A stretch of DNA of 32,000 nt, from contig JAJRZD010000125.1 of the NCBI GenBank assembly GCA_024275415.1, forward strand, positions 9,914 through 41,913. Direction: 5' to 3'. Shown in pieces: positions 6,560 to 17,623 of this stretch. The position numbers were made by a program, and so were the translations under genes. How positions within the stretch are numbered: the stretch's first letter is position 1; every line of letters starts with the position of its first letter. The notes below the pieces were generated by a model, which saw nothing but the letters and a program-made list of their open reading frames with translations, was not told where the DNA came from and did no database searches. This stretch comes from an archaeon. Lineage in GTDB: Archaea; Asgardarchaeota; Thorarchaeia; Thorarchaeales; Thorarchaeaceae.

Positions 6560-7204
6560 TCATCTTATCGCTTTCAGAGCTCTACTTGCAACGAACCAGC
6601 TTATGTTTCCGAGCATCTCGTGTGGGAGATAGAATATCGAATTTCTGTCAAAGAGCATACGGGCACTTGCTGGGAACTCCTCGTCAGCCTCTTCAAAGAT
6701 TATGAGCACTTTTACCATGGGGAGAAAGGACAGCTCAAACCCTACATCTCCGTAGTCTACTCTCTTCGCACCTAACCGCTCGAATGCTGTATAGAGCTTC
6801 TCCCTATTCTCAATAAAAGCAGCAAGGAGTGCTTTGATGTCTTCTTCGTCAAATGAATACCTGCAAGCCCACGACCCTCTCAATGTGTTGAACTTCACCC
6901 ATTCGTTCCCGATGCCCTTGTCCTTTGCCTTGCTGTAATAGAAGAGATATGGAATCAACCGGCTGGGTGATGTTTCTGTATTTGTAAACGTATCGACAGT
7001 CCTTCCTGTTTCAAAATATAATCGGATACCAAGAATGTCCACATATTCGCTTCCCAGTCCAAAATGGTTCCTGATGGACTGGATGTCATCCTTGAAATTC
7101 TCCCAGCTCCACATTGCTGAACTCGTATCGAACTGCTCGATGTCGTGCTTATGCGCTATCTCTCGCGCGACACCCATCCAATACTCTAGAATATCGTCCG
7201 GCAT
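6560..7204 (-). CDS. DUF3786-like protein
   Basis: C-terminal FLPMVKVLIIFEEADEEFPASARMLFD..SIFYLPHE matches the DUF3786 signature as recalled. Confidence 0.75.
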   Translation of the reverse strand: MPDDILEYWMGVAREIAHKHDIEQFDTSSAMWSWENFKDDIQSIRNHFGLGSEYVDILGIRLYFETGRTVDTFTNTETSPSRLIPYLFYYSKAKDKGIGNEWVKFNTLRGSWACRYSFDEEDIKALLAAFIENREKLYTAFERLGAKRVDYGDVGFELSFLPMVKVLIIFEEADEEFPASARMLFDRNSIFYLPHEMLGNISWFVASRALKAIR

Positions 7205-7259
7205 AGAAAATCACCTACTCTGATACATCCGTTCCTATCAGTTTTTACAAACGCCATGC

Positions 7260-8060
7260 CTATTCCTTCTTGGCTTTCTCAGGTGCCGACCTGCAATCCT
7301 CAATTCCTGCAGCCTCGCATACAGCATAGCGTGCCTGATACCCTGCAACATGGAGGAGCGCATCACCGACTTCTCTATCCTTAGCCATTGACGCCGTGCA
7401 CGGGTATGCGTGATGGGCTTTAGAGATCACATCGAATAGGTCATCTGTATCTGCTATCGACCGTCCTCTGACCTTCTGGCTGACATACCATGTACATCCG
7501 CAAGGAGCAGAACGTTTTGGCCCGATCTCGGCAATGATGTCGCCTTTCATGTCCACATAATGGATTGGTCGCCCTAGTCTGTACTGCTCGATGAACTCGT
7601 CAATCAAAGCACCTTCTCCTGGTTCGAGAGTACAGAATGGCTTTGGAAACGCGGATTCAATACCTATCTCATCAAGGGTTTCCTTGACTTGCGCGCGCAA
7701 ACCTGGGGGTATCCATGTTGGATCCTCGATTGGCGCCAAGACGGCTCTCGCACCTGTTATCTTGATCATGTGATCGACCGAAGCAATGATGTCGTGGTGG
7801 ATTGCGACAATCAATAGGAGGTCGCACTTTTCTAGCCCGATTTCGTTGATGTATTGCTCAGGGTCTTCGATAATGGTGGGTGAGGGGGGGTCAATGGGAT
7901 AGATTCCCACAATATCGCCCACATAAGATCCATAGGTAGATCTGCATTCTGAGCAGCTAGGCTCACATGCCTGACAGAATGTCCGGAAGTTGATTAGGTT
8001 CCCTATAACTCGCTCAGCGAAGACATCGCCGTAAATGGTCGCTATTCGCATAGTCGCCAC
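7260..8060 (-). CDS. DUF166-like Cys-rich protein
   Basis: FPKPFCTL, SAPCGCT, HHAYPCTASM and GDALLHVAGY motifs, plus N-terminal CxxCxxxCxxC. Start is GTG 8060 or ATG 8051. Confidence 0.75.
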   Translation of the reverse strand: MATMRIATIYGDVFAERVIGNLINFRTFCQACEPSCSECRSTYGSYVGDIVGIYPIDPPSPTIIEDPEQYINEIGLEKCDLLLIVAIHHDIIASVDHMIKITGARAVLAPIEDPTWIPPGLRAQVKETLDEIGIESAFPKPFCTLEPGEGALIDEFIEQYRLGRPIHYVDMKGDIIAEIGPKRSAPCGCTWYVSQKVRGRSIADTDDLFDVISKAHHAYPCTASMAKDREVGDALLHVAGYQARYAVCEAAGIEDCRSAPEKAKKE

Positions 8061-8213
8061 CTAGAAGTGTAAAACGTATCTTAGCATGTTACATAAGGAT
8101 GTTGTTTGCGGCTCTTTCCATCTCCCTAACGGAAATATAATAACTTACAGATGCGCTGACGAATCTGGTGATGCAACATGGTTCTAGGTGACCTGCTCTT
8201 CCCGAATATCGAA

Positions 8214-8585
8214 ATGAAGCTCGTTATCACACATGATTTTATGAGCGATGTGGAAGCCGCACAGAACAGGATGTCCAATGAGTACCGGAATGCGACTGCC
8301 CTCGTTCGGTTGAGCAAAGGGGATATGCAGAAGCTGGGTCTGAAAGGTGAATCGAATGTGAGCATCCAATCAAAGGCTGGTTCAGTTGTTGTACATGCGG
8401 TAATGGACGAGAACGCTAAGGATGGCCTCGCCGTCGTCCCCTATGGTCCTTGGGCACTTGCACTTGTAGATGTCCCACCTGATGGATCTCCGCCACAGTA
8501 CCACGGGATTCCTGTGACCGTGAAACGGAGCGATGAACAGATTACTCCTCTTCTTGACCTTTTTCAGGACTCTTCATCGTCTTGA
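8214..8585 (+). CDS. fwdD: FwdD/FmdD-like molybdopterin-dinucleotide-binding-fold subunit (degenerate)
   Basis: DMQKLGL..NVSIQSKAGSVVV and PYGPWA pattern of FwdD, but the TGRT/QG motif is missing. Start 8214 preferred; 8178 is possible. Confidence 0.75.
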   Translation: MKLVITHDFMSDVEAAQNRMSNEYRNATALVRLSKGDMQKLGLKGESNVSIQSKAGSVVVHAVMDENAKDGLAVVPYGPWALALVDVPPDGSPPQYHGIPVTVKRSDEQITPLLDLFQDSSSS

Positions 8586-9903
8586 TTAGTTTGTCCACAC
8601 GACCTCGTTCGACCTGCAGATGGTGTCTTGGCTTCTTCTTGAGGAGGTTTCTCAGATCCTGAGCAGCCCGCATTGCTGCTTTCCTTTCACCATCTACAGA
8701 GTCCCATGCTTCATGTTGTTTGATTTGCTGGGATTCTTTCCTTGCGATATCGACCACGATATCTCTTTCGAACAACCCACTCGATGGTGGTGATATCCCT
8801 ACAATGGATTCGAAGGCCCGTTTTCTTGCCGCTTCCCATTCTTTTGCTCTTTCAATCTGGTCTACGTTGTACCCTTCTCGTTTGATGTCCAACACATCAT
8901 ATGGACATGCTATGACACATGCACCACAATACATGCAATGCTCCAAGATCTCTATCTTGTCTGCCGTTCCTGTGGGGTATATTGCCTTGATAGGGCAGAT
9001 GTTGAAGCAATTATGGCACCCTGTCGGATCACATTTATCAAGCTGCTTGATAATGACCTCGCCTGAGAATGGTTTTGTCACTTCAAGTGCTTCGTATGGG
9101 CATACCTCTGCACAGAGTCCACATTTTACGCAAGTTGTGTTATCATGCTTGAGTTCTCCTGTTATTTCAGGCTGTTTGATAGTACGCGGTCCCGATTCTA
9201 TGCATTCTACAGAAATCGCATCATCCGGACATATATCTGCACAGAGACCACAATAGTCACAGTGATCCTCATTGACTCTTATCCCGACAGCAGGGCGGAA
9301 ATCTGGAGGCTCCACGGCTTCTGACCAATAGATGGAGATTGCATCAGGACATAGAATCTCACACAGTCCGCAGAAGGAGCATTTCTTCTCATCGATGTTG
9401 ATGGTGCCCTTTGCGTATTCTTCACCTTGATACGTGACCAAAGATTCCTTCCGGTTCACTTTCACATCCACTTCAAGGGAGTCTGTCGGACAAACCTTCG
9501 TGCAAAGCACACACGGGGCACATTTCTCTTCATCAATGCGATGGATTCCATCAATCCGCTCATACTCGTTGATGGCTCCCTCTCCCTCATAACGTGCTTC
9601 GAAAGCTCTGAATATACATGCTGAGTCACAGAGGCCACAAAAGGTGCATAGGTCTGGATCCACATTCACAAGGGGTGCTCCCTCAATCAGTCCTGAAGCA
9701 GTTTCCTTTACGGGTCCCATGGTTATGGCATCCCATGGGCAGATCAAACAGACTCCACATCCCACACATTTTGCTATCTTGTGATCAAGCACTCTTGTCA
9801 GGATTGAGGTCTTCCAGATATAGATTACAGTGCCGTTTGTAACATCCATCGTGACGGTAGGCTTCTCTCCTACTGAAATCCCAGTTCGCTTTCCCTTATC
9901 CAC
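8542..9903 (-). CDS. fwdF: FwdF-like polyferredoxin with 8 [4Fe-4S] motifs
   Basis: Eight CxxCxxCxxxC-type motifs, including the FwdF-type CDPTGCHNCFNICP. Probable GTG start at 9903 overlaps the hdrA stop, with a GGTG RBS. The ORF is open to 9969. Confidence 0.85.
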   Translation of the reverse strand: MDKGKRTGISVGEKPTVTMDVTNGTVIYIWKTSILTRVLDHKIAKCVGCGVCLICPWDAITMGPVKETASGLIEGAPLVNVDPDLCTFCGLCDSACIFRAFEARYEGEGAINEYERIDGIHRIDEEKCAPCVLCTKVCPTDSLEVDVKVNRKESLVTYQGEEYAKGTINIDEKKCSFCGLCEILCPDAISIYWSEAVEPPDFRPAVGIRVNEDHCDYCGLCADICPDDAISVECIESGPRTIKQPEITGELKHDNTTCVKCGLCAEVCPYEALEVTKPFSGEVIIKQLDKCDPTGCHNCFNICPIKAIYPTGTADKIEILEHCMYCGACVIACPYDVLDIKREGYNVDQIERAKEWEAARKRAFESIVGISPPSSGLFERDIVVDIARKESQQIKQHEAWDSVDGERKAAMRAAQDLRNLLKKKPRHHLQVERGRVDKLIKTMKSPEKGQEEE

Positions 9904-12334
9904 GGCCGGCCACCTTCTTGGTTTTAGTACGATGTGAGGCTTTGGCATTCTTGGAGTTTTCACTTCCAAGCGGCCCTAGCTCCGTGATAGTATTCACAAA
10001 GTCCTCAATCTGTTCGGCGAAAAGATCTGCTTCTGCTGCTGACACACTGCCAAAGTATAGCCGCCGCCCATCTATCCCGATCGCCTCCAACACTTCACGG
10101 AGATTGTCTGTCCTGTCCTTAGCGTATCTAGCTCCTGTCCTGTAGTGACAATCTTGGACATGGCAACCCATCACCGCGACCCCATCCGCCCCTTCTGAGA
10201 ATGCAGTGAGGATGTTGTCGATATTAAGCCTTCCAGTACATGGCACTTGGATGTTGATTATATTTGGCGGATAGCGAATCCTTGAGGTCCCAGCTCTGTC
10301 TGCTGCGCCATAGGCACACCACCTGCACAGAAAACCAACAATCGCCGGCCTAAGTGGATTGTAATTCACAGCAGCCCGTGTTGCATTATCAAGTTGGTCG
10401 TTGTTCAGACATGGAAGATCCATCGCACTAGACGGACACGCACCTACGCATCCACCACACCCTCGACAGGCCGCAATATCGATAATAGGAACCTTTCCAT
10501 CATTGAACTTTATCGCATTTGGCGCACACACCTGTTCGCAGAGCCTACATCCGATACAAAGACTCTCATCACAAGATGGCGCACAGACTTCCGAAATGAT
10601 ATGCCCTGCAACGAAGAGGGTCTTTACCTTCGAAGCCGCCAGTCCTGCGTGTGCGACCGAATCGGCAATGTCTTTCGGCCCCTGAGCGACCCCTGCAAGG
10701 AATACCCCTTTAGAGTGTGTACTACTCGGGCCAAGTTTTGGATGTTGTTCCAAGAAGAAACCATTCTCATCCAGCGGTGTCTTGAGCATCTTTGACAGTT
10801 CCACGTTAGTAGGGCTCGCATCCATCCCGACCATCAATACCACGAGATCGACTTCCATCTCTACCAGTCTATGGAGCAGAGTATCCTCTCCTCTCACGAC
10901 AGTCTTCCCAGATATAGGGTCCTGAGCAATCTCACCTACCGCCCCGCGCACAAAGACTGCTTTGAACTCCTTTGCCGCACGCAGATAGAGCTCTTCTTGT
11001 CCTTTCCCAAAAGTGCGAATATCATTATAGAACACGTATGATTCAACATCTGGCAATTGCTGTTTGAGTTGGATGACCTCTTTCACTGCCGCAGCACAGC
11101 ATACCCTGCTACAATAAGGTCTATTGAATCTGATTGACCTGCTTCCAACACATAGCACAAAGACGACTCGTTTCGGCGGCTTTCCGTCTGAAGGTCTGAC
11201 CACTTTTCCACATGTGGGTCCTGCGGGATTGATCAATCGCTCGAACTCTAACGATGTTACTACATCAGGGTTCACCCCATATCCGAGCTCCTCCACGACC
11301 GTCGGGTCGAAAGTTTCGTATCCAGTAGCAGCCACAATCGCTCCGACATTGATGATTTCGGTTTCTTCCACCTCGTCATAACGGAGTGATTTTGGCTCAC
11401 AAACGCCTGCACATGACTGACACCCGATGCAATTATCGATATCGATGTAGGGTGCGATTGGCACAGTATCCATTGAGGGTCTGACCATCGCCTTTCTCTT
11501 GCCAATTCCACTGTTGTACTCATCAGGCACCTCCACTGGACATACCTCAATGCACCGGTTGCACCCCGTGCAAGTGTCTATATCCACATATCGTGCTTTT
11601 TGTTCGACCGTCACTTTGTATTGTCCTACGCTGCCTCGAATCCGCTTTACTTGAGCAAGAGTCATTATCCGTATCTTCTCGTGTCTTGACGCTCTTGCCA
11701 TCATCGGGCCAAGAATACAGATGCCGCAATCGAATGTCGGGAAAAGTTTATCCCACTTTGCCATATGCCCGCCAATGAAACCCTCTTTCTCTATGATTAC
11801 TACTTCTATCCCTGAATCAGCCAATTCTAACGCTGCAGTCAATCCTGCGACTCCTCCACCAATTATCAACGCGCGTTGTGAGATAGGTGTCTTATACAAT
11901 GACACAGGTTCAGAGTCACGGATCTTGGCTATGCTCGTATCAATGATTGCTCCTGCTTTCAGCGTTGCTGTTTCTGGGTCATCATAGTGTACCCAACTGC
12001 AATGTTCTCTAATGTTTGCCATCTGCAAATGCCCAGCGTCGAGACCTGCCTCTCTGACAGCATCAGAGAACAATTCCTTGTGGAGCAGAGGTGAGCATCC
12101 AGCAATGACCACTTTTTCAACATCGCTCTGTTTTATTTTCTTGATGAGATCATGCACTCCCTGTTCTGAACAGAGATGGTCATCCACCTCCACTAATGGG
12201 ATGCCCTCTTTCTCATATTTCTCCCTAAGCATTTCCACATCGATGACATCGGCAATGTTGGTTCCACAACGACAAAGGAACACACCTATGTTCTTTTTCT
12301 GCTTATCCTTGCTTTTTCGTTTCTTACGACTCAG
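9896..12334 (-). CDS. hdrA: HdrA-MvhD fusion (electron-bifurcating heterodisulfide reductase subunit A plus [2Fe-2S] MvhD domain)
   Basis: IGVFLCRCGTNI, AGCSP, ANIREHCSWVH, GGGVAG, DKLFPTFDC, two inserted ferredoxin motifs, SLEFERL, CVGSR..YCSRVCC...K and two C-terminal ferredoxin motifs. MvhD follows: FLCRWCAYGAAD, PCTGR, GCHVQDCHY. Start proposed at CTG 12334; the first GTG (12283) would cut off the conserved IG. Confidence 0.95.
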   Translation of the reverse strand: MSRKKRKSKDKQKKNIGVFLCRCGTNIADVIDVEMLREKYEKEGIPLVEVDDHLCSEQGVHDLIKKIKQSDVEKVVIAGCSPLLHKELFSDAVREAGLDAGHLQMANIREHCSWVHYDDPETATLKAGAIIDTSIAKIRDSEPVSLYKTPISQRALIIGGGVAGLTAALELADSGIEVVIIEKEGFIGGHMAKWDKLFPTFDCGICILGPMMARASRHEKIRIMTLAQVKRIRGSVGQYKVTVEQKARYVDIDTCTGCNRCIEVCPVEVPDEYNSGIGKRKAMVRPSMDTVPIAPYIDIDNCIGCQSCAGVCEPKSLRYDEVEETEIINVGAIVAATGYETFDPTVVEELGYGVNPDVVTSLEFERLINPAGPTCGKVVRPSDGKPPKRVVFVLCVGSRSIRFNRPYCSRVCCAAAVKEVIQLKQQLPDVESYVFYNDIRTFGKGQEELYLRAAKEFKAVFVRGAVGEIAQDPISGKTVVRGEDTLLHRLVEMEVDLVVLMVGMDASPTNVELSKMLKTPLDENGFFLEQHPKLGPSSTHSKGVFLAGVAQGPKDIADSVAHAGLAASKVKTLFVAGHIISEVCAPSCDESLCIGCRLCEQVCAPNAIKFNDGKVPIIDIAACRGCGGCVGACPSSAMDLPCLNNDQLDNATRAAVNYNPLRPAIVGFLCRWCAYGAADRAGTSRIRYPPNIINIQVPCTGRLNIDNILTAFSEGADGVAVMGCHVQDCHYRTGARYAKDRTDNLREVLEAIGIDGRRLYFGSVSAAEADLFAEQIEDFVNTITELGPLGSENSKNAKASHRTKTKKVAGRG

Positions 12335-12510: not shown

Positions 12511-12984
12511 ATGGAGACCTCAAAAGTGAAACTTAATCCCATGGAGATGTATAATCTCCTTCCCAAGACCAACTGTAGACAATGTGAGCCGAAGACTTGC
12601 ATGGCATTCGCCACCAAGCTTGCTCTTGGCGACGTGAACCCTGACGATTGCCCTCCGCTGCTTGAAGAAGGATTCGAGGCGAATCTACAAAAGATTCGTG
12701 ACTTGGTTGCCCCAATGCAGTCCGCTGCAGAAACAGGTATCAAGCTTGATGAGTCTAAATGCACAGGTTGTAGCAACTGTGTCGTAGCATGTCCGGTAGA
12801 TGTCGCTGCTGAACCTCCTACAAGTGAGGGAAAAGCCGCCCAAGTAGGAACCACAGTGTTCTGGGTGGAGAATGGGATTTCAAAGATTATCAACTTGGAG
12901 AAATGCAGACGCTTTCCCCCTAATCGTCTGAACTGCAGAGTTTGCGAGCAATACTGCTGCACTAATGCGATCGAAATATGGTAG
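12511..12984 (+). CDS. fwdG: FwdG-like ferredoxin fused to an N-terminal CdhE/AcsC-type [4Fe-4S] domain
   Basis: N-terminal LPKTNCRQCEPKTCMAFATKL...DCPPL (C-x2-C-x4-C-x16-C). C-terminal CTGCSNCVVACPV...VENG...C-x9-CRVCEQYCC is FwdG-like. Confidence 0.8.
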   Translation: METSKVKLNPMEMYNLLPKTNCRQCEPKTCMAFATKLALGDVNPDDCPPLLEEGFEANLQKIRDLVAPMQSAAETGIKLDESKCTGCSNCVVACPVDVAAEPPTSEGKAAQVGTTVFWVENGISKIINLEKCRRFPPNRLNCRVCEQYCCTNAIEIW

Positions 12985-14286
12985 GTGGCACTGATGGAAG
13001 AGATAGTTTGTACAGGATGTTATTTGCTCTGTGATGATTCCACAATTGAAGTCAAAGATGGCTCTTTGAGGTCTCTAGGACTCTGCAGGCTGGGACATGC
13101 ACATCTTGAGTCTGCTATTGAACATGCAACACCCAAGGCATTTGTCCGGACGGATGGCAAAAGTAATGAAATTGCGATTGACGATGCAATTCAACAAGCG
13201 GCAGACATCCTTCTTGAGGGTGGTTCACCTCTTCTTATCGGGTGGTCTCAGACCTCCGACGAAGTGATTAAAGAGGGCTTGGATATGGCTGCTAGAGTGA
13301 AGGGCTTCTTTGATTCCATGTCCAGTTTGGGAACATCACAAGCAATGCGCCATGAGATGCACTCATTGAAGCTAGAAGCCGACCTAGAATATGTTAGGAA
13401 CCACGGTGAGTTCATCATTTACTGGGGGACTGACCCTAGTGAGAGCCTGCACAGACACCCGAGCAGGTTCGCAGTCCTACCTCGTGGAGAGAAAATCCCC
13501 GAGGGTGTAGAGAGCAGGACTCTTGGCGTGGTCGATGTGCGACAAACAGAAACGATGAAAATAGCCAACCATCGTTTCATCATTCCCATAGGGAGCGATG
13601 CTGAGCTTCTTGAAACATTGGCAGCAGATATCACTGGTACCTCGAAGATTGATAGTGATGTTCTTGGGATACCAGCGACTGAGGTCATAGGCTTCTCCCA
13701 GCGGTTCCAGAAATCAGACTGTACTGCGATTTTCTATGGGAGTGGGATTTTGAATTCGGGGAAGCATGCAGATAATCTCGCTGGAATACAGAAGCTTGTT
13801 GAGGCAATCAGGTCTATAGGCAAGGAAGCGTTTGCCTTCCCGATGTTCACCGAACCCAACTCGATGGGTGTGATAAAGCATGTGGCCGATGTCACCTCAG
13901 TTCCATGCTCTATTGACTATTCCTCTGGAACTGGTGTTCATAATTCCGATGTGACAGCACTTCAGAAGCTGGTACAAGGCGAGCATTCAACATCGCTTGT
14001 TGTGGGGGATGATGTTCTGGCAGCACTCCCAAGACCCGCCGCAATGGCACTGGCAAAGACACGGATTATTTACATCGGTACCCCGAATGCTATCTGCGAT
14101 AGGTTTGCAGAGATTTCCATCCATACCCCTGATCAGATGCTCGAATCTGGTACAACGATGGAACGGATTGACATGGTCACAGTGACCTTGAAGGGACTTA
14201 CACCCCCTGTAGGTTCTAAGCCCACTATACTGGAGGTCATTACGAAGCTCAATGCAGCAATCCATGACCGAGGTGGCGTAAAGTGA
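12985..14286 (+). CDS. fwdB: FwdB/FmdB-like protein lacking active-site residues
   Basis: IVCTGCYLLCDD...LCRLG [4Fe-4S] motif, YWGTDP..HRHPSRF, VVDVRQTET and FYGSG are collinear with FwdB, but SVCHGP reads SLGTSQ and MRGHYN reads MFTEPN. Confidence 0.85.
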   Translation: MALMEEIVCTGCYLLCDDSTIEVKDGSLRSLGLCRLGHAHLESAIEHATPKAFVRTDGKSNEIAIDDAIQQAADILLEGGSPLLIGWSQTSDEVIKEGLDMAARVKGFFDSMSSLGTSQAMRHEMHSLKLEADLEYVRNHGEFIIYWGTDPSESLHRHPSRFAVLPRGEKIPEGVESRTLGVVDVRQTETMKIANHRFIIPIGSDAELLETLAADITGTSKIDSDVLGIPATEVIGFSQRFQKSDCTAIFYGSGILNSGKHADNLAGIQKLVEAIRSIGKEAFAFPMFTEPNSMGVIKHVADVTSVPCSIDYSSGTGVHNSDVTALQKLVQGEHSTSLVVGDDVLAALPRPAAMALAKTRIIYIGTPNAICDRFAEISIHTPDQMLESGTTMERIDMVTVTLKGLTPPVGSKPTILEVITKLNAAIHDRGGVK

Positions 14287-15089
14287 AGGTCGCAGTCGCA
14301 GGAAAGGGCGGAGTAGGAAAAACGACCGTCGCAGGAACCATTGCCCGCTTGCTTGGTCGTGATGGACTGAAGATACTTGCCGTGGATGCTGATCCCAGCT
14401 ACACGCTCTGGTCGGCGATAGGCATCCCTCAAGAGGTCGCAGACACAATTGTTCCCCTGACCGAGAACGAGGAGCTCGTGGAAGAACGGTTGCAGATCAA
14501 GGAGGTTGGACCTACCTCGACAGGCGTGTTCAAGCTGAACCCACGAGTCGATGACCTCGCCATAAAATTCGCGGTTCCTGGTCCTGACAATGTGCATCTC
14601 CTTGTGGCCGGTACTGTTGATACTGGAGGTTCCGGATGCATGTGTCCTTCAGCCACATTGCTGAAGTCGTTGATGCGTTATCTTGTTATTGGAACCGACG
14701 AAGCTTTTGTGATGGACATGGATGCTGGTGTTGAGAATCTTGGACGTGGCACGACCCGAGGGATGGACGCGTTGATTGTCGTTGTCGAGCCGGGACGGAG
14801 GTCTCTTGACATCATGGGGAAAATAAAGAAGCTTGCAGCAGACATTGAGGTCGGACTAATTCTTGCCGTCGGGAACAAGGTAGTCACTCCAGAAGACTCG
14901 GAGATGATCCGTGAGCGCGTTTCAGCCGAAGGGATCCCTCTCCTAGGGCTTGTCCCTCTAGATGAATCGATTCGAAAGGCTGACCGAAAGGGAATTGCAC
15001 CTATCGATTTGAACGACCAATCTCCCGCCATGCTGGAGATTAGGGACATAAAAGAAAGACTTGTCGAGAGAATCGCCCAAGTTTCATAA
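14283..15089 (+). CDS. cooC: CooC/AcsF-type nickel-insertion ATPase (CODH maturation)
   Basis: GKGGVGKT, DADP, GSGCMCP (CxC), and DMDAGVENLGRGT. GTGA overlap with fwdB. Confidence 0.9.
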   Translation: MKVAVAGKGGVGKTTVAGTIARLLGRDGLKILAVDADPSYTLWSAIGIPQEVADTIVPLTENEELVEERLQIKEVGPTSTGVFKLNPRVDDLAIKFAVPGPDNVHLLVAGTVDTGGSGCMCPSATLLKSLMRYLVIGTDEAFVMDMDAGVENLGRGTTRGMDALIVVVEPGRRSLDIMGKIKKLAADIEVGLILAVGNKVVTPEDSEMIRERVSAEGIPLLGLVPLDESIRKADRKGIAPIDLNDQSPAMLEIRDIKERLVERIAQVS

Positions 15090-15275
15090 TGAAACCCGCT
15101 CGTTTTCTTTTCAAAAACATATCTCTCCTCAGAAGGGTTTTCGTAATCGAACTTCTCTTTCCGCTTAATTAATGAAATCGAACATCATTTTTTACTTTCA
15201 GCCGTCCATTCATAACTTTCTTATGGTCGAATGTTTCAATTCAAAAGCACCACGCACACAGGAACTGAGCTAAAC

Positions 15276-17621
15276 ATGAAGAAAAAAGCGTACATCAAAG
15301 CCGATGAAGCCGAAACCAGTATGGGCGTCTTCAAAGGGCTTGAAGTCAGGATCGGACAGATCATTGACGACGAATGGGATGAACCCATGGGTCCGACACC
15401 GATGCCCGGTCCTACCACGTTACGTTCATGGGATCATAAGTTGTTGACGAAATACACCGCCTCATACATGCCTTATTGTCAGGTCTGTTGCCTCTGTACA
15501 ATGGGGAAATGTGACCTTTCCGGTGACAAAAGAGGGGCATGCGGTCTGGACATGAGAGGTCAGCAAGGAAGGATAGTCCTTGCCGCAGCCAATATCGGCT
15601 GTTCGGCCCACTTGGCCCATTCACGACATCTTATTGATTACCTGATCGAGGAATATGGGCCAAGGACGCGTTTGATCCAAGGTCCAGGTACTGAGATACA
15701 TGCACCTGTATCACGACTAGTGACAGGGATGCGTCCACGCACTCTGGAGGACGCAAGCATTATCCTTGACTATTGCGAAACCCAGCTTGCTCATACTCTC
15801 TCAGCGACATCCACCGGACAGGAAGGTAGTTGGATGGACTTTGAGAGCAAGGTATTCCATGTCGGGATGATTGACCAGCTGTCTATGGAGATTGCTGATT
15901 TAGCCCAAGTTTCAACATTGGGAATGCCACAGGCTGACCCTGATGCTCCCCTTGTGGAATCGGGAATTGGCATGATTGACACAAACAAAGCGGTCATCCT
16001 GACGATTGGTCATAATATTATACCTGCAGCTTCAATCACTGATTACGTCACTGAGAAAGGATTGTACGATCAGGTCGAAGTCGGCGGGATGTGTTGTACT
16101 GCATGGGACATGACCAGACGCGACCAAAAAGCTAAGGTCATCGGACCGATATCATGGCAGCTCCGATATGTCCGAAGCGGACAAGCTGATGTCGTAGTCG
16201 TTGACGAGCAATGCGTACGAACCGACATTGTTTCTGAAGCAAAGAAGGTGAGTACTCCAGTCATATCGACGAGTGACAAGGCTGTAATGGGATTGCCTGA
16301 CAGATCAGATGACCCAGTGGACTCTATTATTGAGGAGCTTGTATCTGGGAAAATCCCTGGTGCTTACATCTCAGACCATCATAAAGTTGGTATCATCGCC
16401 ACGAGAGTCGCGCTTGCTGTCAAACCGGCGCGCAGGAGAAAGCGGTTCTTCCCGAGTGCGAAGAAAATCCAGCAACTTGCTCAGGATTGCAAGAAATGTA
16501 TGGAGTGTGTACGTGCCTGTCCGAATGACCAGAACGTCCAAGAGGCTGTACTTGCTGCTCAGACCGGCAATATGGAACTCCTTCGCGAGGTCTACAATAA
16601 CTGCATCGGATGTGTCAGATGCGAGTCTGCCTGTCCAAATGACTATGCCCTCCACAGCTGGATGGCCGCCGTATCCCAGGATAGTTTCAAGAACGAAACG
16701 CATGTCGTCCGGACTGGGCGAGGTGCAGTTCAAGACACAGAAATCCGCCGAGTGGGACAACCCATTGTTTTTGGGGAGATTCCTGGCATCGTCGCCCATG
16801 TGGGGTGTGCCAATTATCCGGGCGGAGGAAAAGACGTACATGACATGGCTGAGGAGTTTGCTAAGCGCCGTTTCATCATTGTCACATCTGGATGTGCCGC
16901 GATTTCTGCGGGGCATGTAAAGGACGAGAACGGCCAATCTATCTACGAGCGTCGAAGCGGGGAATTCGATGCTGGCTGTGTCGTCAATATGGGCTCTTGC
17001 GTTGCCAACTCGCATATTGCCGGAGCCGCTATCAAGATTGCAGCTATCTTTGCAAAGAGGAACTTGCGTGGTAACTATGCCGAGATTGCTGATTACATCC
17101 ATAATCGTGTCGGCGCGGTAGGGATCTCTTGGGGTGCTATGTCCCAGAAAGCAGTTGCCATTGCAGCAGGATTCTGGCGACTTGGAGTCCCTGTGATTGT
17201 CGGTCCTCATGGCTCGAAATACAGGAGGATGTTCCTCGGACGAGCCGACCGTGACCGTGACTGGATAGTCTACGATGCACGTACAGGTGAACGAATGTAC
17301 ACTGCCCCTGGACCTGAACATCTGTTCTATGCCGCAGAAACCGTGGCGGAGGCAAACGTTCTTACAGCCAAGCTCTGCATAAGGCCCAATGACACAGCCA
17401 AAGGACGTTCAATCAAATTGAGCCATTACGTAGACTTGCATGAGCGATATATGGGCTTCTTCCCAGAGGATGTCTGGAAGTATATTAGGCGTAACAATGA
17501 CATACCCATCACGTTGAAAGACAAGATATTGGCTCAGATGAAAGAGAACAAATGGAAGGAACGTCCCATTCCGGATCCGACGATGCTCAAAGAGCAGATA
17601 TTCACTGGAGGTGAGAAGTAA
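15276..17621 (+). CDS. cdhA: ACDS complex alpha subunit (CO dehydrogenase)
   Basis: B/D-cluster CQVCCLCTMGKC..CG, and HLAHSRH. C-cluster ligands GHN, MCCT, DEQC, VGC, SGC and GSCV are all present. E/F clusters CKKCMECVRACP and CIGCVRCESACP. Start is 15276 or 15231. Confidence 0.97.
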   Translation: MKKKAYIKADEAETSMGVFKGLEVRIGQIIDDEWDEPMGPTPMPGPTTLRSWDHKLLTKYTASYMPYCQVCCLCTMGKCDLSGDKRGACGLDMRGQQGRIVLAAANIGCSAHLAHSRHLIDYLIEEYGPRTRLIQGPGTEIHAPVSRLVTGMRPRTLEDASIILDYCETQLAHTLSATSTGQEGSWMDFESKVFHVGMIDQLSMEIADLAQVSTLGMPQADPDAPLVESGIGMIDTNKAVILTIGHNIIPAASITDYVTEKGLYDQVEVGGMCCTAWDMTRRDQKAKVIGPISWQLRYVRSGQADVVVVDEQCVRTDIVSEAKKVSTPVISTSDKAVMGLPDRSDDPVDSIIEELVSGKIPGAYISDHHKVGIIATRVALAVKPARRRKRFFPSAKKIQQLAQDCKKCMECVRACPNDQNVQEAVLAAQTGNMELLREVYNNCIGCVRCESACPNDYALHSWMAAVSQDSFKNETHVVRTGRGAVQDTEIRRVGQPIVFGEIPGIVAHVGCANYPGGGKDVHDMAEEFAKRRFIIVTSGCAAISAGHVKDENGQSIYERRSGEFDAGCVVNMGSCVANSHIAGAAIKIAAIFAKRNLRGNYAEIADYIHNRVGAVGISWGAMSQKAVAIAAGFWRLGVPVIVGPHGSKYRRMFLGRADRDRDWIVYDARTGERMYTAPGPEHLFYAAETVAEANVLTAKLCIRPNDTAKGRSIKLSHYVDLHERYMGFFPEDVWKYIRRNNDIPITLKDKILAQMKENKWKERPIPDPTMLKEQIFTGGEK

Positions 17622-17623
17622 CA

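Follow-up and report, generated by a model that had tools for sequence, protein, structure and literature searches.

In the solved Hdr-Fwd complexes, electrons pass from the bifurcating flavin adenine dinucleotide of HdrA via polyferredoxins to the tungstopterin of FwdB, the W/Mo subunit of formylmethanofuran dehydrogenase (PMC13518236). Relatives of this subunit that lack the metal ligand have also been reported. FhcB of methylotrophic bacteria is derived from FwdB and acts as a scaffold, its Cys/His/Arg site having been lost (6S6Y; PMC6926001). A Cys-less, FdhA-like protein named 'Molybdop', encoded in the type II HdrA-FdhB-MvhD clusters of anaerobic methanotrophic archaea (ANME-2/3) and Methanosarcinales, was proposed in 2025 to contribute structure but no catalysis to an electron-bifurcating Hdr complex (PMC12054007). 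In a survey of the MopB superfamily, 83 homologues of FwdB were counted among Asgard metagenome-assembled genomes, and it was remarked, with no follow-up, that some FwdB matches are without the Cys (PMC10100899). Here we describe FwdB*, the FwdB-like product of the open reading frame (ORF) at 12985-14286 in a 32,000-nucleotide stretch of a Thorarchaeaceae genome (assembly GCA_024275415.1, contig JAJRZD010000125.1, positions 9,914 to 41,913; hereafter the window), together with its FwdD-like and FwdG-like partners, termed FwdD* and FwdG*. FwdB* has lost the catalytic Cys, His and Arg and has kept the cysteines of an N-terminal [4Fe-4S] cluster. Going beyond the sequence-only reading of the window, which had singled out the gene, we find FwdB* to be one subunit of a conserved module whose context gives its probable role.

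Residue losses, retained motifs and selection in FwdB*

Against Methanothermobacter wolfeii FwdB (5t5i_B), FwdB* was aligned over its full length by HMMER (E 1e-37), FDSMSSLGTSQA of FwdB* pairing with IDNTASVCHGPS of 5t5i_B gap-free across the motif, and PMFTEPN pairing with PMRGHYN. The canonical FwdB of the same genome, which reads VDNTSSVCHGPT and PMRGHYN, paired with FwdB* in the same register by BLASTP. The W/Mo ligand Cys118 is replaced by Gly116, His119 by Thr117 and Arg288 by Phe288. Both alignments bear out what had been read from the sequence alone, namely that the ligand Cys is Gly and the next His is Thr, with no TGA or selenocysteine involved, and that PMRGHYN has become PMFTEPN with loss of its Arg. 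The N-terminal CxxCxxxC...C had been called intact, and it is: the C9-x2-C12-x3-C16...C34 motif is present and all four Cys are invariant in 16 orthologues. The same 16-sequence alignment holds 80 invariant columns, which comprise Gly116, the four Cys and 75 others. A conserved Cys, Ser or Asp that might replace the lost ligand is absent from the active-site segment of the sequence alignment, where the flanks of the invariant Gly116 are variable. We infer from these alignments that FwdB* is without pterin and that its cluster is a working one.

The 433-aa ORF is translated free of stops and has no in-frame TGA. The earlier description of it as open and full-length stands, but its start has to be moved: GTG 12985 immediately abuts the stop codon of the upstream FwdG-like gene, and the likely start is ATG 12994 (MEEIVC...), which is preceded by a Shine-Dalgarno-like AGGTGG box and agrees with a database protein of 430 aa. 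The FwdB profile TIGR03129 scored FwdB* at 249.4 bits, under the curated equivalog cut-off of 327.8, with profile positions 2-417 of 421 aligned; a Pfam search of the FwdB* protein gave zero matches.

The changes extend well beyond the three catalytic residues. An alignment of 20 canonical FwdBs has 84 columns that are at least 85% conserved; of these, 42 are retained in the Thor-type consensus of 118 sequences, 55 in family f12 of the Asgard archaea and 74 in the class of module proteins with Cys-His but no Arg. Those kept in the Thor-type consensus include the cluster motif, WGxDP, RHxSR, VDVRxT, GxG, R394 and D396, and those lost include C-H-G-P, the R-G of PMRGH, N280, T283, SDP, IP, D369, P384 and G389; we take the lost positions from SDP to G389 to be the domain-III dinucleotide-binding segments of MopB enzymes. 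The loop 305-325 is deleted in 86% of the FwdB* family. In FwdD*, the canonical domain-IV TGRTxxQG has become ITHDFMSD and MPSFKG has become PPQYHG, and R-T-x-x-Q-G is retained in the FwdD of the intermediate module classes. This pattern of motif loss parallels that of FhcB, in which the cofactor has disappeared along with the site, the FwdD partner and the cluster domain (PMC6926001); in the FwdB* module, by contrast, the cluster domain and a degenerate FwdD remain. Loss of the bis-pterin cofactor from FwdB* is rated likely on sequence grounds. In the FwdB of family f12 (L044:7001-8290 and L045:6992-8272), the Cys-His site reads Glu-Tyr and the retained columns include N155, H160, N280, P364, P384 and G389; this protein may have a carboxylate ligand.

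The mean pLDDT of an AlphaFold2 model of FwdB* was 73; residues 1-36, 154-176 and 187-193 were predicted with low confidence. By Foldseek, the model was closest to FwdB (TM 0.79-0.80 for 8rja_B and 5t5i_B), and it also resembled FhcB (TM 0.59-0.71), then NuoG (TM about 0.5-0.56) and formate dehydrogenases. The most strongly conserved family-specific segments of FwdB*, ESxHRHPSRFAVLPRGEKIPEGIESR (153-178) and TETMKMANHR (188-197), are encoded at about 13444-13563 and coincide with the lowest-confidence regions of the model at 154-176 and 187-193.

A word-indexed search returned 168 relatives, of which the best 120 are 45-63% identical to FwdB*; where these have a source name it is chiefly Thorarchaeota, the other names being Promethearchaeota, Sifarchaeia and Odinarchaeota; more than 100 intact Asgard orthologues of FwdB* were found. 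An orthologue scoring at least about 500 bits is present in 35 of the 301 Asgard genomes sampled, all 35 belonging to the window's family f1 (genera g1, g2, g9, g13 and g15), and a relative of 338-391 bits is present in each of the 19 genomes of family f12. All 30 orthologous loci that were fetched hold an ORF matching FwdB*. For 19 orthologue pairs, which share ancestry and so are not independent, the ratio of non-synonymous to synonymous substitution (dN/dS, Nei-Gojobori) of FwdB* was 0.083-0.162; the estimates come from closer orthologue pairs, since comparisons with the gene in the window reach saturation at synonymous sites even within its genus. In the same pairs the FwdG-like gene gave 0.011-0.08 and cooC 0.043-0.077. 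FwdB* is under purifying selection, with a looser constraint than that on the neighbouring enzymes, and the suggestion that the gene looks selected agrees with ratios this far from 1, the value set beforehand as the mark of decay. The quickest-evolving genes of the cluster are fwdB* and fwdD* (46-56% identity, versus 60-84% for the rest), which fits a scaffold better than an enzyme.

The gene module and its distribution

In the window, fwdB* lies among the following genes:

6560..8060, minus strand: DUF3786 (6560-7204) and DUF166 (7260-8060), conserved module neighbours in Thor-type loci
8178..8585, plus strand: FwdD* (MopB domain IV), NF042908 60 bits against a cut-off of 175
8542..9969, minus strand: FwdF-like polyferredoxin, NF042909 225 bits, matching 5t5i_F, 9sw6_H, 9sfi_T and 7bkb_K
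9896..12283, minus strand: HdrA-MvhD fusion (HdrA2 / type Ia), NF040770 900 bits over the full length, divergent from the FeS-fwdB* operon
12511..12984, plus strand: fusion of a PF04060 (CdhE/RnfB-type) [4Fe-4S] domain with an FwdG-like 2x[4Fe-4S] ferredoxin, 157 aa, its stop abutting the fwdB* ORF
12985..14286, plus strand: fwdB*, FwdB paralogue without the active-site Cys/His/Arg and with the four-Cys [4Fe-4S] motif
14283..15089, plus strand: CooC-type P-loop ATPase, its GTG start overlapping the fwdB* stop (GTGA)
15231..22177, plus strand: cdhA, cdhB, cdhC, cdhD and cdhE, archaeal CO dehydrogenase/acetyl-CoA synthase (CODH/ACS)
22330..23145, plus strand: second CooC/AcsF-type ATPase

The HdrA and MvhD portions match chains of 8RVU, 5ODC, 9SFI and 7BKB. 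The PF04060-FwdG fusion matches 5t5i_G (FwdG), 9sfi_U and the N-termini of corrinoid iron-sulfur proteins, its PF04060 domain being of the kind found at the N-termini of CdhE/AcsC and RnfB, and its 12 cluster Cys are invariant in 14 orthologues. Neither fwdA nor fwdC occurs in the window or in the Thor-type loci. Since the neighbours of fwdB* match the HdrA, MvhD, FwdF and FwdG chains of solved Hdr and/or Fwd complexes, the module corresponds to an Hdr-Fwd gene set minus FwdA and FwdC and with a disabled FwdB. Beside fwdB* in the 30 orthologous loci stand the FwdG-like gene (29/30) and cooC (27/30), the latter following fwdB*. Loci labelled Odin and Sif are colinear in the order GFO/IDH, DUF3786, DUF166, fwdD*, polyferredoxin, hdrA-mvhD, FeS-fwdG*, fwdB*, cooC, cdhABCDE, cooC and CoA-transferase.

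Some further features of these loci may be recorded. The ORFs of fwdD* and the polyferredoxin converge and share 44 bases at their 3' ends (8542-8585); the same convergent overlap occurs in L004 and L005. DUF3786 and DUF166 are 62-64% and 76-78% identical, respectively, in Thor-type loci, and DUF166 weakly matches the NCBIfam entry '(seleno)protein DfsP'. After the cdh cluster, 24059-25948 encodes a 629-aa protein that joins an acetyl-CoA hydrolase/CoA-transferase to a GNAT acetyltransferase domain and has the same position in L004 and L005.

An exhaustive profile-free search found 667 relatives, and the spread of the module was established from context look-ups and genome searches. Its core comprises HdrA-MvhD, a polyferredoxin, an FwdB-like gene and the PF04060-FwdG fusion, and many of the loci also have an FwdD-like gene. 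The core is found in the Asgard groups f12 (with cooC, and with cdhAB in one of two loci), f15 and f21, in f16 and f7, both with fwdA, and also in Ranarchaeia, Bathyarchaeia, one further archaeon and Thermoprotei, where it is colinear with HdrC- and HdrB-like genes. The FwdB-like proteins form an active-site series: canonical copies have C-H...PMRGHYN, most module copies have C-H with Ala, Ile or Ser in place of the Arg, and the Cys-less module copies read E-Y in f12, G-Y in Bathyarchaeia, S-Y in Ranarchaeia and G-x in the Thor type. In a maximum-likelihood tree of 75 rows (quick search, SH-aLRT support), Thor-type and f12 sequences form a clade (96*) with Bathyarchaeia as sister (91), both within a 99* clade that is otherwise Cys-His without Arg. 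Because the Thor-type, f12 and Bathyarchaeia sequences nest among Cys-His sequences that have no Arg, the Arg was lost first and the Cys later. On this tree at least six changes of the Cys state and three of the Arg are needed, and Cys was lost at least twice within the module; the active site has decayed stepwise and repeatedly. Among 134 full-length FwdB-like representatives, 130 keep the four Cys and 16 the full Cys-His-Arg triad; cluster-retaining FwdB relatives without a complete site are therefore common, though almost undescribed.

FwdBs with Cys-His and no Arg are widespread in HdrA modules (L047, L048, L049, L051, L007, L008 and L046, at about 7000-8300 or 10001-11290), two of the loci carrying fwdA. 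Among the representative FwdB-like proteins, which are numbered P0124-P0272, a Cys-less clade (P0158, P0164, P0170, P0172 and P0176) nests among canonical FwdBs, and one of its members is encoded beside FdhD and 2Fe-2S ferredoxin genes. Selenocysteine was considered for an f21 homologue containing one TGA and was rejected, because its active site has Cys-His and the TGA lies elsewhere.

Possible roles of FwdB*

On balance we favour, with reasonable though not high confidence, a role for FwdB* as a non-catalytic scaffold and electron-relay subunit in a complex with HdrA-MvhD, the polyferredoxin, FwdG* and FwdD*, in which the CO2-reducing end is disabled. The protein would descend from the W/Mo subunit of formylmethanofuran dehydrogenase, now without its metal ligand and most probably without its bis-pterin, and would retain the fold and the N-terminal [4Fe-4S] cluster, serving as a structural and electron-relay part. 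The assembly as a whole would be an electron-bifurcating or confurcating complex of the Hdr-Fwd type. We infer that the subunits come together like those of the solved methanogen supercomplexes, that FwdB* is free of pterin and that electrons pass through its cluster. In the Asgard archaea of the Thor type and of f12, whose module is joined to cooC-cdhABCDE, CODH/ACS may take the place of an Fwd active site as the partner in the exchange of low-potential electrons.

The link to CODH/ACS was followed within family f1, where cdhA is found in 35 of the 36 genomes with FwdB* and in 5 of the 40 without it. The one genome with FwdB* and no cdhA match is a gapped scaffold of 77% completeness. A truncated FwdB*/HdrA in genome G243, which has no cdhA match, was considered as a relic and rejected, the truncation arising from 100-N scaffold gaps. 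Four of the five cdhA matches without FwdB* lie at contig ends. A complex prediction for the PF04060-FwdG protein with CdhA returned a score of 0.00, which gives no verdict and weighs neither way. A further, tentative proposal, which we hold to be possible but on the whole unlikely, is that FwdB*, FwdD* and FwdG* act as an adaptor that docks HdrA-MvhD and the polyferredoxin onto CODH/ACS, giving an 'Hdr-ACDS' supercomplex in which low-potential electrons would move to or from CO2/CO without free ferredoxin.

Several observations weigh against these assignments. The fifth cdhA match without FwdB* is a g13 cdh cluster that has no upstream module (some genomes of the genus have two cdhA copies), and module loci of other phyla are not next to cdh; the co-occurrence with cdhA may thus reflect physical linkage only, and it is compatible with functional coupling and equally with gain or loss of one linked block. 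Neither HdrBC nor a hydrogenase, which would point to an electron donor and a high-potential acceptor, is encoded adjacent to the module. The surviving domain-II motifs (WGxDP, RHxSR, VDVRxT and GxG) and the FwdD-like cap mean that a nucleotide or a pterin-type ligand may still be bound. The two family-specific segments may bind a ligand or form an interface with a partner, and would count against a purely structural role if they form a new site.

The last two points lead to the possibility that FwdB* and FwdD* make up a new enzyme that uses a cofactor of pterin or other type for another reaction; the metal would be held without a protein ligand, as in arsenite oxidase, or by a ligand from elsewhere. 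The retained FwdD-like cap, the domain-II motifs of molybdopterin guanine dinucleotide type and the low dN/dS would agree with catalysis, and the strongly conserved polar segments 153-178 and 188-197 could form a site. We nevertheless judge this unlikely: half of the columns conserved in canonical FwdB are changed, including the domain-III nucleotide motifs, and TGRTxxQG of FwdD is altered; FwdB* and FwdD* evolve faster than all the other cluster genes; Gly is invariant at the ligand position and the residues around it vary; and Cys was lost independently in the Ranarchaeia module, with other residues at the site.

The module might instead be an electron-input platform for the canonical Fwd of the same genome, FwdB* and FwdD* pairing with or flanking FwdABCD and bringing in FwdF, FwdG and HdrA. 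The canonical FwdB (552 bits with TIGR03129) is encoded in a fwdD-fwdB-fwdA operon on contig C113 (L055:7405-10850), with no fwdC, fwdF or fwdG beside it; fwdC stands alone on contig C118 (L056:1471-2325), and the FwdF-like and FwdG-like proteins of the module are the only ones found in this 93%-complete genome. In solved Fwd complexes, moreover, FwdF mediates oligomerisation. Even so, the proposal is very unlikely, since seven genera of f1 have canonical FwdB and neither FwdB* nor cdhA, which means that canonical Fwd does not need FwdB*; FwdB* tracks cdhA and not canonical FwdB, and FwdG* is encoded next to FwdB* and not next to the canonical copy. Across the whole genome there are 40 matches to CCG (HdrB/HdrD-type) domains, mostly two per ORF and none on the window's contig (C112), and nine to MvhD (FlpD) domains, four of them in long ORFs; these counts point to many Hdr-like complexes. 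Finally, the view that fwdB* is a recently inactivated gene heading for loss, to which the missing catalytic residues and the faster evolution relative to its neighbours might point, can be given virtually no credence, being contradicted by more than 100 intact orthologues over several Asgard lineages, full-score matches in 35 of 301 genomes, an ORF in 30 of 30 loci, dN/dS of 0.08-0.16 and 80 invariant columns.

If FwdB* is the non-catalytic scaffold and relay subunit that we favour, the series from canonical to Arg-less to Cys-less forms of one subunit would trace the stepwise conversion of a molybdo/tungsto-enzyme into a wiring or scaffold part, and automatic annotation as 'formylmethanofuran dehydrogenase subunit B' would overstate the CO2-reducing capacity of these genomes. 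To our knowledge, methanogens are so far the only organisms in which structures connect Hdr, with its flavin-based electron bifurcation, to Fwd. The module bears on how non-methanogenic archaea that use the Wood-Ljungdahl pathway, Asgard archaea and Bathyarchaeia among them, gain or dispose of electrons near -500 mV, and it offers a concrete complex to purify. Its interest would be higher if it were hard-wired to CODH/ACS, as 'Hdr-ACDS' would then be the methanogen Hdr-Fwd supercomplex with its wiring moved to the second low-potential step of that pathway.

Comparison with described MopB subunits

FwdB* is most likely a further case of a catalytic MopB subunit turned scaffold or wire. A literature search covering FwdB-like proteins and paralogues, Hdr, Fwd and polyferredoxin of Thorarchaeota, and DUF166/DUF3786 found no description of the module; to the reported cases the present analysis adds how widely the module is distributed, the repeated, step-by-step loss of the active site, the measurements of selection and the co-occurrence with cdhA. 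With the FwdB/FmdB of M. wolfeii (5T5I) and Ca. Ethanoperedens (8RJA), FwdB* shares full-length homology, the fold, the four-Cys motif, partner genes for FwdD, FwdG and FwdF, and a nearby HdrA as in the Hdr-Fwd supercomplexes. Unlike them, it is without Cys118, His119 and Arg288, has half of the conserved columns changed, belongs to a module with no fwdA or fwdC and coexists with a canonical copy.

FhcB is alike in its descent from FwdB, in the loss of the Cys/His/Arg site and in the scaffold function assigned to it. The statement made in the sequence-only reading, that the methylotroph protein is both pterin-less and without the Fe-S cluster, is correct according to PMC6926001, which adds that the FwdD partner is missing too, whereas FwdB* has both the four-Cys motif and an FwdD-like gene. 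FhcB is accompanied by fhcA, fhcC and fhcD in aerobic bacteria, and FwdB* by HdrA-MvhD, polyferredoxin, FwdG-like, CooC and Cdh genes in anaerobic archaea; in the 75-row tree the Thor-type clade lies far from the bacterial-type Cys-less clade. The idea of a wire-retaining pseudo-enzyme distinct from FhcB is accordingly supported by the kept four-Cys domain, the kept FwdD-like partner and the low dN/dS.

The 'Molybdop' protein (PMC12054007) resembles FwdB* in belonging to the MopB family, lacking the ligand Cys and being encoded beside hdrA. It represents another MopB lineage, nearer to FdhG and FhcB, whereas FwdB* is nearest to FwdB; it pairs with FdhB and a type II HdrA, whereas the HdrA of the fwdB* locus is of the MvhD-fused type Ia/HdrA2 and no FdhB is encoded in the locus. 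It lacks FwdG, FwdF and FwdD partners as well as any link to CODH/ACS, and it occurs in methane-metabolising Euryarchaeota, not in Asgard archaea, Thermoprotei or Bathyarchaeia. The C-terminal domain of NuoG/Nqo3 in complex I is likewise a pterin-less MopB fold kept in a redox complex with Fe-S clusters, but it originates from the cytoplasmic formate dehydrogenases, is joined to further Fe-S domains and is part of a membrane complex.

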